7,524 bases of DNA from a virus. Lineage: Duplodnaviria > Heunggongvirae > Uroviricota > Caudoviricetes. This document shows, piece by piece, positions 1-7,524 of the stretch (within the stretch, counting starts at the first letter, position 1; the number at the start of each line of letters is the position of its first letter). The notes under the pieces were generated by a model that did no database searches, was not told where the DNA came from, and worked only from the letters and a program-made list of their open reading frames with translations. The DNA lies in IMG/VR virus record IMGVR_UViG_2778260995_000017, positions 1 to 7,524 of that record. One strand, written 5' to 3'. The translations under genes and the position numbers were made by a program.

Positions 1-288
1 TTAACGGATCAACAGCCAGACCAGCAGACACGCCACCACCGGCACAGCAAAATCCATCAGGCTTGCCACATCCCAAGCACGCGGATCAAAACCGCCCCAC
101 CACGGCATATTCATTCGCTTGCCATGCCCGAACATTTCAATCCAGCGATATTCTGCCTGGGTATGTTCACGAGCGATGAAGAATGTACAACCAGCTATCG
201 CACCGTAAGCCCAGTTTCCGGTAAAAAGACCAACCAGTACCTGCGCAGCCACAGCACAAAGTGCATGAAGTAAGGGGCTTATATCCAT
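1..288 (-). CDS. Hypothetical small membrane protein (95 aa, two or three predicted transmembrane segments)
   Basis: ATG at 286-288 is preceded by a strong AGGAGG Shine-Dalgarno (minus-strand reading AAAGGAGGAGTAATG), 13 nt after the stop of the 233-aa gene. Hydrophobic N-terminal stretch (LLHALCAVAAQVLVGLFTGNWAYGAIAGCTFFIA) and C-terminal stretch (LMDFAVPVVACLLVWLLIR) flank a Trp/Arg-rich loop. Stop TAA at 1-3, exactly at the window edge. Confidence 0.55.
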   Translation of the reverse strand: MDISPLLHALCAVAAQVLVGLFTGNWAYGAIAGCTFFIAREHTQAEYRWIEMFGHGKRMNMPWWGGFDPRAWDVASLMDFAVPVVACLLVWLLIR

Positions 289-301
289 TACTCCTCCTTT
301 A

Positions 302-1003
302 TCAGATATCGTTTCGGGAAGTTGATAACAACTTTAATTCTGACTGAAGTTCATCAACTCTTTCTGTCAGTTTCTGGATATGGTGAATCAGTGGAACAAC
401 CAGACGTTCGTACATTACACCTTCGGCAACAAGGCCATTGCTGGAAATAGCTTCCGGTGCATCATCTTCGTTAGCTGGTCGCCAGTGTACAAACTGAGGG
501 GCAATTTCTCCTACTTCCTCGGCAATCAATCCGTAGAATCCCCAGTCACGCCTGTCATTTTCGCATTGCGACCTGTACCACACAGGGCGCATCTTGAAAA
601 TGAGATCGGCGTGCTCTGAATCTATCGTCTCTACTGAATGTTTATAGCGAATAGACGATGTTGACCGCAGTACAGACGAAATTGCGGGGTCAGGATTAAG
701 ATAAAGGTTTGCCGCCGCTGTAGTCGTGGCCAAATTCCATAAATAAAACGCTTCTCGACCTGTCAGCGGGTAAAAATCACCGCCATAACGACCGCTTTCC
801 AGATCGTTCGCTTCCACTTTGTTTTTCAGCTTATTATCAACTTCAGTTTTTGTGTATCTGGTGCTGATATCCTGCTTTGCACTGGTCATATCAGTCTGAA
901 GCGTTGATACTTTTCCGTTAATTGAGGAAATATCTTCCTTAGCTTTACTGACATCTCCCTTTAGCGTGGTAATGTCTCCCGGAATTACTGTCGATGTAGC
1001 CAT
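302..1003 (-). CDS. Coiled-coil protein (233 aa) with a C-terminal peptidase S74-like intramolecular chaperone domain (tail-fibre / endosialidase C-terminal chaperone type)
   Basis: ATG at 1001-1003 with a GAGGAAG ribosome-binding site in the 9-bp gap after the upstream stop. The N-terminal half is repeat-like and coiled-coil-like (DITTLKGDVSKAKEDISSINGKVSTLQTDMTSAKQDIS). The C-terminal half carries motifs I recognise from S74 chaperone domains: SSIRYK (the S-D-x-R-L-K-type site holding the nucleophilic Ser and the Lys), GLIAEEV, NGLVAEGVMYERLVVPLIHHIQKL, and a terminal coiled coil. Stop TGA at 302-304. Confidence 0.7.
   Translation of the reverse strand: MATSTVIPGDITTLKGDVSKAKEDISSINGKVSTLQTDMTSAKQDISTRYTKTEVDNKLKNKVEANDLESGRYGGDFYPLTGREAFYLWNLATTTAAANLYLNPDPAISSVLRSTSSIRYKHSVETIDSEHADLIFKMRPVWYRSQCENDRRDWGFYGLIAEEVGEIAPQFVHWRPANEDDAPEAISSNGLVAEGVMYERLVVPLIHHIQKLTERVDELQSELKLLSTSRNDI
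329..658 (-). other. Peptidase S74-like (intramolecular chaperone, auto-processing) domain within the 233-aa protein
   Basis: Spans roughly aa 116-225 of the 233-aa protein, from the putative nucleophilic Ser in SSIRYK to the C-terminal helix. Boundaries are approximate and based on motif positions only. Confidence 0.55.
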
Positions 1004-1012
1004 TTTTCTTCC

Positions 1013-1294
1013 TCACATCCAGCCACGAAGTTGATGCTCAACAGCAACCACGTATTCATCGAATAATGACAGTGTTTTCACATCATTAATGATGCGCACG
1101 TTTACAAAATATCCGTCTTCCTTAACACATACCGGTTCGCCATCTTCATTCAGTTCTCCGGTTTCTTTGTACACGTTACCTATCACGTCAATAAGAATAT
1201 CATCCTGCATCGACTCATCATTATAATAGCCAATACTTCCCATAAAGGCCGAAAAGTCGACCCTGTCGGCAAATTTGAGTGTTAAATCTTTCAT
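1013..1294 (-). CDS. Hypothetical small acidic protein (93 aa), translationally coupled to stf; possible fibre-specific assembly factor
   Basis: Its ATG (1292-1294) overlaps the stf stop (1291-1293) as ATGA. A G-rich Shine-Dalgarno (GGGGGAGAG) lies upstream inside the stf 3' end. No recognisable similarity to lambda Tfa. Stop TGA at 1013-1015. The coding call is supported by the coupling and the ribosome-binding site; the function is inference. Confidence 0.55.
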   Translation of the reverse strand: MKDLTLKFADRVDFSAFMGSIGYYNDESMQDDILIDVIGNVYKETGELNEDGEPVCVKEDGYFVNVRIINDVKTLSLFDEYVVAVEHQLRGWM

Positions 1295-3678
1295 TTAATA
1301 CTCTCCCCCATTTGCGCATCAGTTAATTCTTTATGCCATATTCTGAAATTCCTGATGTGTCCAAACAAATGCCTCGTTCCGGCAGTTGTCTGCCCTCCTA
1401 TTCTTATTGCCGTTGATTTTATAGCACCACCCCATGAAGTACTGACTTTTGATGAAATGTTACCATTCAGCGACGCTGCTAAGCCGCCATCTTTGTCTAT
1501 TTTAACTCCATATATTCCAGTGTTTACAACTTCATTGTTACCAGTTCCTCTTGACGGGGAACCAACGCTAACATATGCCGATCCAGGAAGAACTGTTGAT
1601 GTCGGCCCTCGGAATGCAAATATAAAAGACTCTTCAGCGAATGATGATGTTGCGTTCAGGTCAAAAATTCTTGGTGCTCCGTTTGGCACAATATCCCAAT
1701 TCTTATTAACTTCAATAAGAACACTGATAGGTTGTTTATAAATATTGTTTCTTGCGGGAATAGTTACCATATCACTTGCACGGGTCGCCGCCGTCGTTCC
1801 TGATATAATAAAAGATGATACACAAGCCCCATTCTCTACTTGTGGGGTAGCCAGATAAATATAGTCACCTGATACGGTTGCCCCGCCCTGCTTAGGTGAA
1901 TACTGTATCTGAGAGCCTATTTTTAACTCACCATCAATTGCCTGAATTGTTGCCTCAGCAAAAATCCATCCTGTAGTTTCATCCTTCCTGACTCGTGCCG
2001 TAATTCTACCGGAAGCACCACCTGTCATATTAATTTCAAGCGTTTGCGTATCAATATACGCATCACCAAGAAAAGTTGTTGCACTACCGTCATATTTATC
2101 AAATCGGATACGCAACCTTACCTGCAGTTCTGTTTTAAAACGACATGATGTTGTCACGTACTTATTATCGCCTGAGACATCAACTGACTTTGTTGCAGCA
2201 ATTGATGCCATATTAATGGCTGAGGTTTGCCCAATCAGAGAATCGTTGCAGACAAACTTTCCATAGGTAAAACCAAAACTATCCGTCCCGGTTTCGGGAA
2301 CATCCATATTTGACGATCGCCCCCAACTGGCAGGGTTTTCCGAATTGAGCATGTAGTTTGTTCTTTGCCCCTCAATAAGCAGACCATCACGTTCAAATCG
2401 TGGCTCGTCAATGGCAGCCTCTGTCAGCACACCAGATTTATTAATATAGGTTGCTTTCGACGCTCGTTTAAATTTAACAATCTTGTCGCCAGGCATCGTT
2501 ATTTCATCGTCACCAATAACAATTCTTTTATATGATGGCGAAAAGCCCGTAATCATATCCAGTGAATCGTTAAATGGTATCCACACATCAGGCAGCGGCT
2601 GTAAGACATATTTATACGGCTCTGCTGCCTGGCTTGCATACTCTCTGGCTGCGTCTTCACTTGCTTTTGCAGCCGTCTGGCTTGCTGCCGATGCTTTCGC
2701 CGAGTTCGCCGCCGCTGTTTCGCTCGCCTTTGCGTTGGTTTCACTGGTTTTTGCTGCTTTTTGACTGTTAGCTGATGCAGTGGCAGAAGCAGCCGCCGCG
2801 CTTGCAGAACCAGCTGCAGCACTCTCGCTTTCGGCTGCTGCATCCTGACTGCTTTTCGCCGCAGTTTCGCTGGCTTTTGCATTCGTTTCGCTGGTCTTCG
2901 CTGCCGTCTGACTGGACTTTGCGTTAGTTTCACTCGTCTTCGCGGCTTTCTGGCTGTTAGCCGCAGCAGTTGCTGATCCAGCTGCTGAAGTCGCAGAACC
3001 GGCTGCCGCGCTCTCGCTTTCGGCTGCTGCATCCTGACTGCTTTTCGCCGCAGTTTCACTGGCTTTGGCATTCGTTTCGCTGGTTTTCGCTGCCGTCTGG
3101 CTGGACTTTGCGTTGGTTTCGCTCGTCTTTGCGGCTGTCTCGCTGTTTTTCGCGTTGGTTTCTGATTTTTTGGCTGCTGTCGCGGAGTTTGCCGATGCAG
3201 TCTGCGAGGACGCTGCCGCCTGTGCGCTGTTAGCTGCATTCGTTTCTGAGGTTTTCGCCGCGTTCTTCGATGAAGCCGCTGCAGTTTCGGATTTCTTTGC
3301 CGCCGCTGCGCTCTGAGAGGCGGCTTCGGCGTTGCGTGCCGCTTCTTCCACCATTTCCTCAAAACGGCGCAATGCCTCCGGCATAACATCCTCTTCCGTC
3401 ATGGCACCGAGAAAATCATTCAGCGTACCTGGTCTGGAACCTTCATAGACGGTAATGGTCCCGGCATGTGAAGGCGGAAAACCTTCAACTAGCAGGGTGA
3501 CGCTGTACTGGCCATACTCAACATCCATGCTGTAACGCCCGGCTTCATCCGGATTTTCAGAGGCCACCGTGTTCACCAGTACCGTGGTGCTGTTACGCTT
3601 TGCCTTCAGTTGAATAGTGCAGTTCTGTATTGGTTTTCCCGCACCATCTTTCAGCACACCTGAAATCTGTACTGCCAT
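1291..3678 (-). CDS. stf: Side tail fibre protein (Stf-like): lambda-Stf-type N-terminal domain, Ala/Ser/Thr-rich repetitive shaft, and a distal domain of about 440 aa unlike lambda's
   Basis: ATG at 3676-3678 is preceded by GGAG (minus-strand reading TGGAGTGAGTATG). The ORF track starts two codons earlier at a GTG (3682-3684); I prefer the ATG because MAVQISGVLKDGAGKPIQNCTIQLKAKRNSTTV...RYSMDVEYGQYSV...GFPPSHAGTITVYE aligns with the lambda Stf N-terminus (MAVKISGVLKDG...) as I recall it. The C-terminal tail ...TRHLFGHIRNFRIWHKELTDAQM resembles the end of concanavalin A-like / laminin-G-type lectin domains, which is a tentative reading. Stop TGA at 1291-1293. Confidence 0.85.
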   Translation of the reverse strand: MAVQISGVLKDGAGKPIQNCTIQLKAKRNSTTVLVNTVASENPDEAGRYSMDVEYGQYSVTLLVEGFPPSHAGTITVYEGSRPGTLNDFLGAMTEEDVMPEALRRFEEMVEEAARNAEAASQSAAAAKKSETAAASSKNAAKTSETNAANSAQAAASSQTASANSATAAKKSETNAKNSETAAKTSETNAKSSQTAAKTSETNAKASETAAKSSQDAAAESESAAAGSATSAAGSATAAANSQKAAKTSETNAKSSQTAAKTSETNAKASETAAKSSQDAAAESESAAAGSASAAAASATASANSQKAAKTSETNAKASETAAANSAKASAASQTAAKASEDAAREYASQAAEPYKYVLQPLPDVWIPFNDSLDMITGFSPSYKRIVIGDDEITMPGDKIVKFKRASKATYINKSGVLTEAAIDEPRFERDGLLIEGQRTNYMLNSENPASWGRSSNMDVPETGTDSFGFTYGKFVCNDSLIGQTSAINMASIAATKSVDVSGDNKYVTTSCRFKTELQVRLRIRFDKYDGSATTFLGDAYIDTQTLEINMTGGASGRITARVRKDETTGWIFAEATIQAIDGELKIGSQIQYSPKQGGATVSGDYIYLATPQVENGACVSSFIISGTTAATRASDMVTIPARNNIYKQPISVLIEVNKNWDIVPNGAPRIFDLNATSSFAEESFIFAFRGPTSTVLPGSAYVSVGSPSRGTGNNEVVNTGIYGVKIDKDGGLAASLNGNISSKVSTSWGGAIKSTAIRIGGQTTAGTRHLFGHIRNFRIWHKELTDAQMGESIK
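2750..3140. repeat. Direct tandem duplication of a 189-bp unit (63 codons) inside stf, within a longer Ala/Ser/Thr-rich low-complexity stretch (about 2620-3340)
   Basis: Two near-identical adjacent DNA copies: for example CTCTCGCTTTCGGCTGCTGCATCCTGACTGC occurs at about 2822 and again at about 3011, and TTAGC...GCAG at 2768 and 2957. At protein level the unit KTSETNAKSSQTAAKTSETNAKASETAAKSSQDAAAESESAAAGSA...ANSQKAA occurs twice in frame. Flanking sequence holds degenerate partial copies. Confidence 0.85.
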
Positions 3679-3688
3679 ACTCACTCCA

Positions 3689-3717
3689 CAAATAAAAAAG
3701 GCGCCATTTCTGGCGCC
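3689..3717 (-). terminator. Rho-independent terminator-like hairpin plus T-tract immediately downstream of J
   Basis: Minus-strand reading GGCGCC-AGAAAT-GGCGCC followed by TTTTTTTATTTG. Plus-strand stem arms are 3700-3705 and 3712-3717, and the A-run is 3691-3699. Lies between the J stop (3739) and the stf ribosome-binding site. Confidence 0.6.
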
Positions 3718-3738
3718 CGTATTGGGGTTATAAATATT

Positions 3739-4200
3739 TCAACGGATACTGATACCGGAAGCAGCTTTTTTGGTCACAATTACCGTACAGTCTGTGATGT
3801 TACCTGCGCCCTGATTGCCTTTCTGGAAAATCTTAAACTCCAGAGTGACGCTACCACCACCACTCGGCATATCAATAACCGCACTGTAACTACCGGGAAT
3901 GGCTCCTTTAGTTTCTCTGGATGCGATTAATACGCCGTTTTTGCGAACTTCAAAACCATAACCCGTATATCGCGTACCTCCCGGGTTATTACCGCTCCCC
4001 GGATCGTCATACGCCATACCGTTAAAAATAATGGGCGGAATAATAATCTGGCGGTCAAAGTTATGATCATCGTAAATGGTGACTGTAACCGTCCCGTTTG
4101 GTGTTTCCGTGTTACCCCACGTACCAGCCTGTTTCGGGAATGATTTGGATACAGTTTTAACGAAGTCACCTCTGACCTGGTTCGCCTCCAGCATGCCCTT
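3739..4200 (-). other. Divergent C-terminal (putative receptor-binding) segment of J
   Basis: Roughly the C-terminal 150 codons of J. The protein sequence departs from the lambda-like body here, and the DNA becomes visibly more AT-rich than the GC-rich J body upstream (about 4300-7150). Boundary is approximate. Confidence 0.55.
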
Positions 4201-7152
4201 AATCGTACAGTTTTCATTTATCGTGACGTTGTTGAGCGTCCCGGAGTTCGCATTCACGTTACCGCTGATATCGGCATTTTTCGCCGTCAGCCGCCCGTCC
4301 GGTGTCAGGGAAAATACCGGCGGATTGCCGCCGCTGGTAATGGTGGGAGCCGTCAGATACTTCAGGAACACTTCGTTCATGAATATCTGGTTGCCCTGCG
4401 CCACAAACATCGGCGTTTCATTCCCGTTTGCCGGGTCAATAAACGCAATACGGTTAGCGGCAACCAGGAACTGGCTCAGTTTGCCTTCCTCCGTATCCTC
4501 CATGCTGAGGCCAAGCCCCGCGACATAATGCCTACCGTCTTCGGTCTGCTCAATTTTGACGCCCCACATGGCATTCCATTTATCGTTGGCGTCTTTCCAC
4601 TCTTTCGAAAACTGATCCAGTCTGCTGGCGTTATCCTCCGTCAGGTCGACTTTTTCCAGCAGTTCCTTGCCGAGATGGGATTCGGTTATCTGGCCTTTGA
4701 AAAAATCCAGGTAACCTTCCGCATCATCGCTCGCCCGACCGACGGCCTCCACGAATGCCGATTTGCCAACAGTATTCACACTGCGGATATAAAAATAATA
4801 ATCATGGCCCGGTTTGATATTGATACTGGCAGCTATCCAGTACAGCGCCGTGCCAAGATAGCGGGCTGTGGTTTCAACCTGCCTGATATCCGCAATCCGC
4901 TTTTCCGAGAACCAGAACTCAAACTGTACCGTCGGGTCATAAACGGCAAGATGCGGCGTGGCGGTGATCTGAAAATAGCCCGGCGTCAGCTCAATCCGCG
5001 ACGGTGCTGCCGGTGCGGCAATCCGGAACGATACCGATGCCGGATCGCCCTGCTGCCCCCAGGCATTTGCCGCCCGGACTGTCAGCCTGTAATTTCCCAG
5101 CGCCAGTTGCCTGAAGCGGTATGTGGTTTCCGTCGTCCGGGTCGTGCTGACCAGCCGCTCACTGCCGTCATCCGCTGCCACGGTCAGGCGAAGCATAAAG
5201 CTCACCCCCTTCACCACCTTCGGCGTATCCCAGCGCGCCAGCACCTGGTATTCCCCACTGTCTGCGGTGACTTCGGCAGTCAGGTGCTGCACCGCTGGCG
5301 GCGTGACACCATTCATCGTGCCGCTCTGGTCGCCGTCAAAGTGCGCCCCGTTATCCACAATGGCTTCTTTTTCCGGGACATGCTGCACGGCAGTGATGGC
5401 ATACGTGCCGCCATCGTTCTCACGGATACTCACACAACGGAACAGGCGCTGGCGCAGCGTCGGCAGCTTCAGCCCCCACACGCTGTACTCGGCAACGCCG
5501 TCAGGAACCCGGCTCACTTTCACCTTCACGCCGTCGGTGACGGACTGGACCTCCACGCTGACCGGATTCCCCTGTCCGTCAACCAGGCTTATCAGCGCGG
5601 TGCCGGAGGATGGCAGCGTGATTTCACGGTCGAGCGTCAGTGTCCGGGTCTGGCTGTTCACCGCCAGCACGCGCCCGCCGATGCTGATCCCCGCATAGTC
5701 ATCATCACAGATTTCAATGACATCACCCGGTACATGGCGAAGCCCTTCGGCCCCCACGCTGAAGTCCACGGTCTGCGTTTCCAGCAGTTCCGTTTTAATC
5801 AGCCACAGCCCGGCGCGGTGCGCCTGCCCCCGGCTGGTACAGCCAAAGGCATCCATCTTCGTGACGTTACGACCGTAACGGGCAATGGCCTGCGTATCTT
5901 CAACAAGCTCTGTCGCCGTCTCCCAGCCGTTGTTCGGGTCAATCCAGTTCACCTCAACGGCATTATGGCGGTCCTTCAGGGCGCTGAAGCTGTAGCGGAA
6001 CGGCGCGCCATCATCCGGCATCACCACATTACTGCGGTTATAGGTCCACACCTTATCTGATGGTCGGTCCTGCACGAACGTCAGCGTCTGCCCGTTCCAT
6101 ACCGGCATACAGCGCATCGCCGAGCAGAAATCACTGAGCACATCCCACGCCTTACGCTGCGTGGTCAGCCAGGCATTACAGGTGATGCGCGGCTCCGTGC
6201 CGCCAAAACCGTCCGGCACTGACTGGTCGCAGTACTGGCCGATGACATACAGCGCCCATTTATCCACATCCGCCGCACCAAGACGTTTCCCCATGCCGTA
6301 GCGCGGGTGGGTCAGCATATCCCACAGACACCAGGCCGGGTTGTTGCTGTATGCCGGCTTAAACGTTCCGTCCCAGATACCGCTGTATTGCCGCGTCTGC
6401 GGGTTATAGTTCGACGGCACCTGCAGAATGCGCCCGCGAAGATGATAATTACGGCTCACCTGCTGGCTGCCGAACTGCTCCGAGTCCACCTGCACGCCGA
6501 CCAGTGCCGTGTTCGGGTAGCACTGTTTCACATCGATGATTTCGGTGTATGACGACCAGAGCGTTTTGTTCTGCAGCTGGTCTGTGGTGCTGTCCGGCGT
6601 CATCCTGCGCATCCGGATATTAAACGGGCGCGGCGGCAGGCTACCCACCACCACCGAGGCCAGATACTGCGAGGTGGTTTTGCCCTTAATGGTGATGTCT
6701 TTTTCCGTCACCCAGCCACCGTTACGTTGTATCTGAACCAGCAGACGGACTTCCGACGGATTCCTGTCACCCTTTGAGGAGGTTTCCACCAGTGCCTGTA
6801 CACCGAAGGTAAAGCGCAGACGGTCGATGTTTGCAGACGTAATGGTGCGGGTGATCGGCGTGTCATATTTCACTTCCGTACCCAGCACCGTCTCGGAGCC
6901 GGAGGATTCAAACCCCTCCGGCGGTGTCTGCTCCTGCTCACCGGCACGGAACACCACCGTGACACCGGAGATGTTGGTATTCCCCTCAGTGTCCAGCACC
7001 GGCGTACTGTTCAGCAGCACGCTTTTTAATCCATCCACCGGACCTTCAACCGGCCCTTCGCTGATGGCATCGATCACACTCAGCAACTGCGTGGACTTCA
7101 GGTTATCCTTCGCTTCGCGCGGGGTATGCCCCTTACTGCTTCCTTTACCCAT
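3739..7152 (-). CDS. J: Host specificity protein J (central tail fibre / tip attachment protein, lambda gpJ family), 1137 aa, with a non-lambda C-terminal receptor-binding region
   Basis: ATG at 7150-7152 is preceded by GAGGA (minus-strand reading CGTGAGGAATG). The N-terminus [34 protein letters not shown]... and most of the body are near-identical to lambda gpJ as I recall it, and the length is close to lambda's. The last roughly 150 aa ([22 protein letters not shown]...[10 protein letters not shown]) do not match my recollection of the lambda LamB-binding C-terminus. Stop TGA at 3739-3741. Confidence 0.95.
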
Positions 7153-7174
7153 TCCTCACGCTCCATAAATGACA

Positions 7175-7194
7175 AAACCGCCCGCAGGCGGTTT
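7175..7194 (-). promoter_or_regulatory. Intergenic stem-loop between I and J (8-bp GC-rich stem AAACCGCC / GGCGGTTT, 4-nt loop)
   Basis: Perfect inverted repeat read directly from the sequence, in the 60-bp gap between the I stop (7213-7215) and the J start (7150-7152). The flanking T-runs are short and interrupted on both strands, so this is more likely an mRNA stability or attenuation element than an efficient terminator. Confidence 0.3.
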
Positions 7195-7212
7195 CACATA
7201 AAACATTTTGCA

Positions 7213-7524
7213 TCAGCGACCAATCACCACAACCTGACCACCGTCCCCTTCGTCTGCCGTGCTGATCTCCTGAGAAACCACGCGTGACCCCACGCGCATT
7301 TCCCCGTACAGAACAGGCAGAACATTGCCCTGGGCAACCATGTTATCCAGTGAGGAGAAATAGGTGTTCTGCTTACCGTTATCCGTTGTCTGTGTACGGG
7401 GAGTTCTGGCTTTCGGTGCCAGCATCTGCGCCACACCACCGAGCACTATACTGGCACCGAGAGAAAACAGGATGCCGGTCATACCACCGGCCCCAATGGC
7501 TGCCCCCCATGCTGCAAGGGTGGC
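7213..7524 (-). CDS. I: Tail assembly protein I (lambda gpI family), C-terminal portion only; the 5' end lies beyond the window edge
   Basis: The minus-strand frame is open from the window end (7524) to a stop at 7213-7215. Translation ...ATLAAWGAAIGAGGMTGILFSLGASIVLGGVAQMLAPKARTPRTQTTDNGKQNTYFSSLDNMVAQGNVLPVLYGEMRVGSRVVSQEISTADEGDGGQVVVIGR matches the C-terminus of phage lambda gpI as I recall it, with a few substitutions. The Met at 7480-7482 used by the ORF track is internal, not the true start. Sits directly upstream of J, as in lambda. Confidence 0.85.
   Translation of the reverse strand, partial: ATLAAWGAAIGAGGMTGILFSLGASIVLGGVAQMLAPKARTPRTQTTDNGKQNTYFSSLDNMVAQGNVLPVLYGEMRVGSRVVSQEISTADEGDGGQVVVIGR

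Follow-up and report, generated by a model that had tools for sequence, protein, structure and literature searches.

The question raised by this locus is whether the tail-tip protein J of a lambda-like phage has had its receptor-binding end exchanged for that of another phage and, if so, which porin that end recognizes. The window analyzed here is the whole stretch of 7,524 nucleotides (positions 1 to 7,524 of IMG/VR record IMGVR_UViG_2778260995_000017). Its largest open reading frame is an intact, full-length J gene (tail tip attachment protein, or central tail fibre; 3739–7152, minus strand) specifying 1,137 amino acids followed by a stop codon, exactly the length of the J protein of phage 434. 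The C-terminus of J sets host specificity (PMC3509688; PMC11101478). An initial annotation had held that J follows lambda gpJ closely except for its last roughly 150 residues, that these had been replaced by recombination, and that the phage probably uses a receptor other than LamB. We consider it very likely that this is a lambda-family J with the phage 434 allele of the C-terminal receptor-binding domain, for which the OmpC porin is the most probable target.

The six Pfam domains of gpJ (FNIII-A_GpJ, Phage-tail_3, Ig_J, Ig_J_second, Phage_Tail_Tip and Ig_GpJ_C) are present in order, each above its cut-off. The last of these, PF12421, described in Pfam as "C-terminal receptor binding domain", covers residues 1001–1136 (window 3745–4152, minus strand) with a score of 88.5 bits (E = 5e-25) against a curated cut-off of 26.2, and corresponds to the Ig-like receptor-binding domain proper. 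A protein identical to J is encoded in two NCBI assemblies. On those contigs the gene order is Tape_meas_lam_C, Phage_min_tail, Phage_tail_L, a K-like gene, Lambda_tail_I, J and phage_tail_N (stf), and in both the upstream tail genes H-M-L-K-I and the downstream stf are intact. J is a complete lambda-family tip attachment protein, as both its domain series and its position in the tail block fit. The conserved body (residues 1–982; 4207–7152, minus strand) was delimited from its ~96% identity to lambda and from the Pfam matches; it comprises the hub, FNIII/Ig domains, helical shaft and beta-prism fibre, these names being taken from the lambda structure paper (PMC11101478). From its likeness to the solved lambda protein over these residues, J is predicted to form a trimeric tail-tip fibre.

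Over its full length J is 88% identical to lambda gpJ (NC_001416; 1002/1142 identities by BLASTP). The identities are almost continuous through residue ~982, which bears out the claim that the body tracks lambda, and then become sparse and gapped. The last 155 amino acids (window 3742–4206) share 57 of 160 aligned positions (36%) with the last 150 of lambda, with 17 gap positions that form four indels at loops; the early estimate of roughly 150 divergent residues was thus a good one. A lambda-type LamB-binding module would resemble gpJ residues ~983–1132, loop lengths included, and at 36% identity this tip does not.

The break is equally evident at the DNA level. In a codon-level alignment with lambda, 120-nt windows are 84–100% identical up to J nt ~2880, 74% at nt 2881–3000 and 39–51% beyond, while the mismatches per 30 nt rise from 0–6 to 10–30 at J nt ~2970 (window ~4183). 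DNA identity falls from ~90–95% to ~45% over ~40 nt (window ~4222–4183), and we place the junction zone at 4183–4222 (minus strand; J nt ~2931–2970, residues ~978–990), where the collapse coincides with a drop in the G+C content of third codon positions (GC3). In the protein the zone lies at the foot of the beta-prism fibre, directly ahead of the Ig-like domain. The interval originally given for the divergent region, 3739–4300, covers the tip but takes in some 95 nt upstream that are still conserved relative to lambda. Identity drops in identical alignment windows whether lambda is compared with 434 or with this J. Since lambda and 434 part at the same junction, the difference is an old allelic polymorphism and no recent event in this phage.

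The initial annotation had also described a shift from a GC-rich J body to an AT-rich 3' end, which is correct only in part. The G+C content is 60.0% for J nt 1–2150, 52.9% for nt 2151–2940 and 47.0% for nt 2941–3414, the corresponding GC3 values being 73%, 64% and 47%. Change-point analysis places the dominant change at J nt ~2209 (window ~4943), the main step from ~60% to ~53% lying at 4943–4977, where it precedes the junction by about 750 nt. Both lambda and 434 have its counterpart at nt 2175 and, being common to them, this large step has no bearing on the exchange of the module. A further change point, at nt 2931, coincides exactly with the break in identity but is non-significant for total GC (LLR of 2.3 versus a shuffle 95th percentile of 4.2), as is the drop in total GC at the junction (Fisher p = 0.07). 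GC3 on the other hand falls across the junction from 64.1% to 47.1% in this J (p = 7e-4) and from 63.0% to 47.7% in 434 (p = 0.003), whereas in lambda there is no such drop (63.7% to 62.7%, p = 0.83). A compositional signature of the module therefore exists, but it is smaller than first implied and lies elsewhere than the big step.

The J of phage 434 (OL657226; UMO75286.1) is of equal length and aligns with this J free of gaps, 1093 of the 1137 residues (96%) being identical; within the tip the figure is 144 of 155, again with zero gaps. The two genes also agree in the position of the junction relative to lambda, in the GC3 drop within the tip and in the type of terminator 3' of the gene. Gap-free identity, same junction and same terminator type together assign the tip, by sequence, to the 434-type (h434) class. 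The 434-type receptor-binding module comprises residues 983–1137 plus the stop codon (3739–4206, minus strand), has a GC3 of 47%, and is 36% identical to lambda, 93% to 434 and 98% to phages PhiR11_1 and Tritos. There are 44 substitutions in total between this J and that of 434, of which 11 fall within the tip (N991T, T1000A, S1004A, Q1008K, A1009V, N1019D, Y1027S, M1046I, I1108V, Q1110H and G1115R). Phage 434 differs in having a lom-like gene after J, where in the window stf follows directly, and in the fibre segment upstream of the junction (J nt 2760–3000), the DNA of which is only 82–88% identical to that of this J.

The nearest relatives of this J are those of PhiR11_1, Tritos and HannyBb, which at the DNA level are 96% identical over J and the start of stf, and 97–98% in the tip. 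Their tip proteins are 98% identical to this one; that of PhiR11_1 matches at 152 of 155 residues, the three substitutions being Q1008K, M1046V and S1101N. All three phages have the order J, terminator, stf without lom, as in the window, although the genes downstream of stf differ.

The distribution of tip types among phages was surveyed using tblastn against 50,697 phage records. Seventy-four records have tips at least 90% identical at the protein level, none lies between 60 and 90%, and 169 are below 60% (36–48%). This strictly bimodal distribution indicates that J tips exist as discrete alleles rather than as a continuum. At the DNA level the tip is 91–98% identical to 74 phage records, which include 434, mEp460, cdtI and many long-tailed Stx phages. 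A search for homologous proteins with the tip returned mostly truncated J fragments from draft assemblies, and served only to show how identities are distributed and to supply the input for structure prediction. The abrupt break in identity, the discrete tip classes and the identity of the tip with the 434 allele all uphold the proposal of a recombinational swap.

Directly 3' of the J stop codon is a terminator-like hairpin (GGGCGCC-AGAAAT-GGCGCC, window 3718–3699) followed by a T-run, the element as a whole occupying 3689–3718 on the minus strand. It matches the hairpin of 434 save for a single compensatory exchange in the stem (a G:C to an A:T pair), and the 434 record carries a terminator annotation at the corresponding position after J; the lambda terminator is unrelated in sequence. 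Because the hairpin is 434-like while that of lambda differs, it is part of the exchanged cassette, which consists of tip module, stop codon and terminator stem as one exchangeable unit. Near-identical fibre sequence bounds this cassette upstream, and homologous recombination could thereby move tips between lambdoid phages. The tip is a known and very common allelic module moved by homologous recombination, and in that sense there is little new in it.

The gene for the side tail fibre, stf (1291–3678, minus strand; the ATG at 3678 fits the alignment with lambda Stf), adjoins J directly with no lom gene between them. It is a second, independent host-range determinant.

By sequence and by predicted structure the tip is a diverged member of the gpJ C-terminal Ig-like fold. 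Among proteins in the PDB its best match, in sequence and in predicted fold, is the A8 gpJ chimera (9wca/9wcb; PMC11338833, Brodel et al. 2024), an OmpC-binding J tip of natural origin, the complex of which with this porin has been solved. The sequence matches are to 9wca ("A8 gpJ 713", E = 1e-58) and to lambda gpJ (8xcj, E = 2e-48; 8iyk, E ~ 1e-48). The AF2 model of residues 961–1137 (pLDDT 77) is an all-beta Ig-like domain, for which Foldseek gave strong structural matches only to 9wcb (A8 gpJ in the open state with OmpC), 8xcj (lambda gpJ with LamB), 9wca and 8xck. The A8 tip is homologous but, at ~46–47% identity with indels (Foldseek), it falls into a different tip class from this J. Lambda gpJ (8iyk, 8xcj, 8xck) has an identical architecture and a homologous C-terminal Ig-like domain of the same Pfam family, though its tip is only 36% identical, has a GC3 of 63% against 47% here, and is followed by a different terminator. 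An unrelated, non-homologous C-terminal domain was also considered, and is ruled out by the Pfam, PDB and fold matches to the Ig-like domain of gpJ.

The literature names OmpC as the receptor of 434 J, a protein that confers on lambda the classical h434 host range. According to two papers, lambda carrying 434 J in place of its own binds OmpC, the receptor of 434 (PMC3509688; PMC11101478). As the tip is of the 434 type, the porin that it recognizes is most probably OmpC and not LamB. By analogy with 434, OmpC is thus the probable receptor of this J, and the suggestion of a receptor other than LamB gains support from the identity with the 434 allele and from the literature on OmpC use by 434. 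OmpC is likewise the receptor for other natural J tips when these are fused to lambda; two of the chimeras, A8 and 1A2, accept different OmpC variants (PMC11338833). A further divergent J tip using OmpC is described in a paper on Gifsy-1, which makes no comparison to 434. The receptor of the phi330 tail fibre was shown to be OmpC by knockout and complementation (PMC12502783). This long-tailed EHEC phage has a lambda-like J with a homologous tip that is only 43% identical to the present one, i.e. it belongs to another class, and its use of OmpC indicates that there is no one-to-one correspondence between receptor and sequence class. A 2026 preprint on receptor prediction deals with GpJ of the Drexlerviridae type and states that the lambda tip is not comparable. 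No assignment of an outer-membrane receptor was found in the literature on PhiR11_1, other ECOR-derived phages, Tritos or HannyBb.

How binding might be transmitted can be outlined from lambda, in which four loops of the Ig-like domain enter the extracellular lumen of the porin and the three domains move away from one another; newly formed hydrogen bonds then make the beta-prism more compact and twisted, with a flip of the helical shaft and opening of the hub (PMC11101478). Judged from the solved structures of the homologous lambda and A8 proteins, J would be a trimeric central fibre, the last ~150 residues of which form an Ig-like domain with distal loops that may reach into the mouth of a trimeric porin on its extracellular side. 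On porin binding the domains would spread, the beta-prism fibre would twist and the tail tip would open for DNA ejection. Since residues 1–982 are ~96% identical to lambda, the signalling and hub machinery should work as it does there, the chain of transmission presumably being the same with OmpC as the trigger.

The most serious alternative to OmpC recognition of the 434 kind is that the 11 substitutions in the tip have shifted its specificity, either to another porin such as OmpF or to certain OmpC alleles only, so that OmpC would be wrong or incomplete as an assignment. Relative to lambda, the indels of this tip lie at about lambda residues 1012, 1048, 1077 and 1107, and coincide with the four hot spots for indels by which natural lineages of J are defined (Maddamsetti et al., PMC6646904). 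Residues 1012 and 1107 were critical in the laboratory shift of lambda to OmpF, and four J substitutions suffice for added OmpF use (PMC6646904). Of the eleven differences in 155 residues, seven (N991T, Q1008K, A1009V, N1019D, M1046I, Q1110H and G1115R) are located in or beside regions of lambda host-range changes (cf. PMC6646904), and several adjoin the hot spots for loops and indels. The differing OmpC preferences of the A8 and 1A2 chimeras, and the use of OmpC by phi330 despite its dissimilar tip, likewise count in favour of a shift. Against this, the tip is 93% identical to that of 434 and free of indels. Its codon differences from 434 number 17 synonymous to 11 non-synonymous, with no excess over the adjacent fibre segment (32 to 16), and the 434-type class occurs in E. 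coli genomes at 90–98% DNA identity, which resembles ordinary allelic drift. We therefore regard such a shift as unlikely. The related suggestion that the PhiR11_1/Tritos sub-type of the 434 tip, including this J, differs from 434 in its range of OmpC alleles or uses a second porin is in our view similarly improbable. A functional difference from 434 is conceivable because Q1008K, A1009V, N1019D, Q1110H and G1115R are situated beside the loops homologous to lambda 1012 and 1107; if it were real, the window would represent a naturally occurring variant in host range within an otherwise known class.

A second alternative, that the window derives from a defective prophage in which the tip is no longer used and its difference from lambda is without functional meaning, is very unlikely. 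Many E. coli prophages are cryptic, and the sequences most similar to the window are prophage regions of chromosomes. J is nevertheless intact and exactly of 434 length, the neighbouring genes H, M, L, K, I and stf are undamaged in the source contigs, and near-identical J genes are found in PhiR11_1, HannyBb and Tritos, which plate on E. coli. The prophage is presumed to be functional.

Lastly, divergence of the tip in place from a lambda-like ancestor, through point mutation sped up by selection on host range and with no exchange of a pre-existing module, would accord with the homology of the two tip domains and with the fast evolution of the receptor-binding region under diversifying selection (PMC6646904), but deserves almost no credence, since it is effectively refuted by the sharpness of the junction (~90% to ~45% DNA identity over ~40 nt, synonymous sites included), the 17-point change in GC3 at the same place, the recurrence of the same tip at 91–98% DNA identity in many otherwise different phages, the absence of intermediates at 60–90% among phage records, and the 434 type of the non-coding terminator 3' of J.

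We are left with the 434 allele on a lambda-family J, and the abundance of this allele bears on how it should be described. Of 5426 complete E. coli genomes, 2107 contain DNA that matches the tip (window 3739–4215) at 90–98% identity; the equivalent lambda segment was found in 98 of the 5426, in every case at 99% identity or higher, and the five of these 98 genomes that were listed are laboratory strains (K-12, B and DE3). In natural prophages the 434-type tip is the common form and that of lambda a rarity, the former being about twenty times more frequent in complete E. coli genomes. The initial description of the tip as "replaced" is accordingly apt insofar as it differs from lambda, but only relative to lambda, the 434 type being the commoner natural form.

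That lambdoid phages exchange J tips, and that the tip of 434 is specific for OmpC, is textbook phage genetics. A catalogue of natural J-tip lineages already exists, and two tip-porin complexes have been solved. For annotation the value of the finding is that this prophage should be predicted as needing OmpC, not LamB. With OmpC as the predicted receptor, mutations in the maltose regulon or in lamB would not protect the host. More broadly, since the 434-type tip is far commoner, taking lambda as the default is a poor way to predict the receptors of lambdoid prophages.

The body of the tip attachment protein gene J (window 5050-7152, J nt 1-2100) is, judged from its profile of identity to related phages, itself mosaic. 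Over J nt 1-1300 the identity to lambda is 95-100%, and lambda is mostly equally close or closer than phage 434 or PhiR11_1, the latter being one of the nearest phage relatives of this J. From nt ~1320 to 2100 the identity to lambda is 87-94%, and in parts of this segment (nt ~1560-1680 and ~1860-2100) PhiR11_1 is clearly closer than lambda, at 96-98%. A putative 510-amino acid ORF lies antisense to J on the plus strand (4528-6060), within a stretch having a GC3 of >70%. Where GC3 is above 70%, long antisense ORFs arise by chance.

Downstream of the J stop at 3739 lie a terminator-like hairpin (3718-3699, minus strand) and, immediately after it, the start of stf, the side tail fibre gene; no lom gene is present between J and stf (3678-3739). 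Lambda and 434 both carry a lom/Ail-family gene after J, whereas PhiR11_1 has the same lom-less J-stf arrangement as the window. The hairpin is unrelated in sequence to the lambda post-J terminator. Its stem, GGGCGCC/GGCGCC, differs from that of 434 (GGGCACC/GGTGCC) by one pair and, since this change is compensatory, the comparison suggests that the hairpin is under selection.

In the ORF listing stf begins at GTG 3684. The alignment with lambda Stf starts at ATG 3678, which is preceded by GGAG, and the product is therefore likely to be the 795-amino acid protein initiated at this ATG; the source assemblies call a product of the same length. Tandem DNA repeats of period 189 (2.2 copies) and period 42 occur inside stf at 2728-3181, and specify Ala/Ser/Thr-rich 'AAKTSETNAKSS' repeats in the shaft of the fibre, similar to those of lambda Stf. 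The coding of these repeats accounts for a pronounced AT skew (-0.5 to -0.7) as well as for the G+C plateau of 56% found at 2550-3450.

Downstream of stf two small minus-strand ORFs of 95 and 93 amino acids (1-288 and 1013-1294), matching PHROG families of unknown function (phrog_1443 and phrog_1361), flank a 233-amino acid ORF (302-1003, minus strand) with an S74-type intramolecular chaperone domain. The 93-amino acid ORF occupies the position expected for a tail-fibre assembly chaperone. For the 233-amino acid ORF the matches are to very long fibre proteins, of which only the C-terminal end is covered (positions 1147-1384 of 1385 in phrog_3299), and the ORF has only its first 27 residues in common with the PhiR11_1 gene in the equivalent position. 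From these comparisons it looks like another exchanged fibre-tip module, and it may be either a short fibre in its own right or a fragment.
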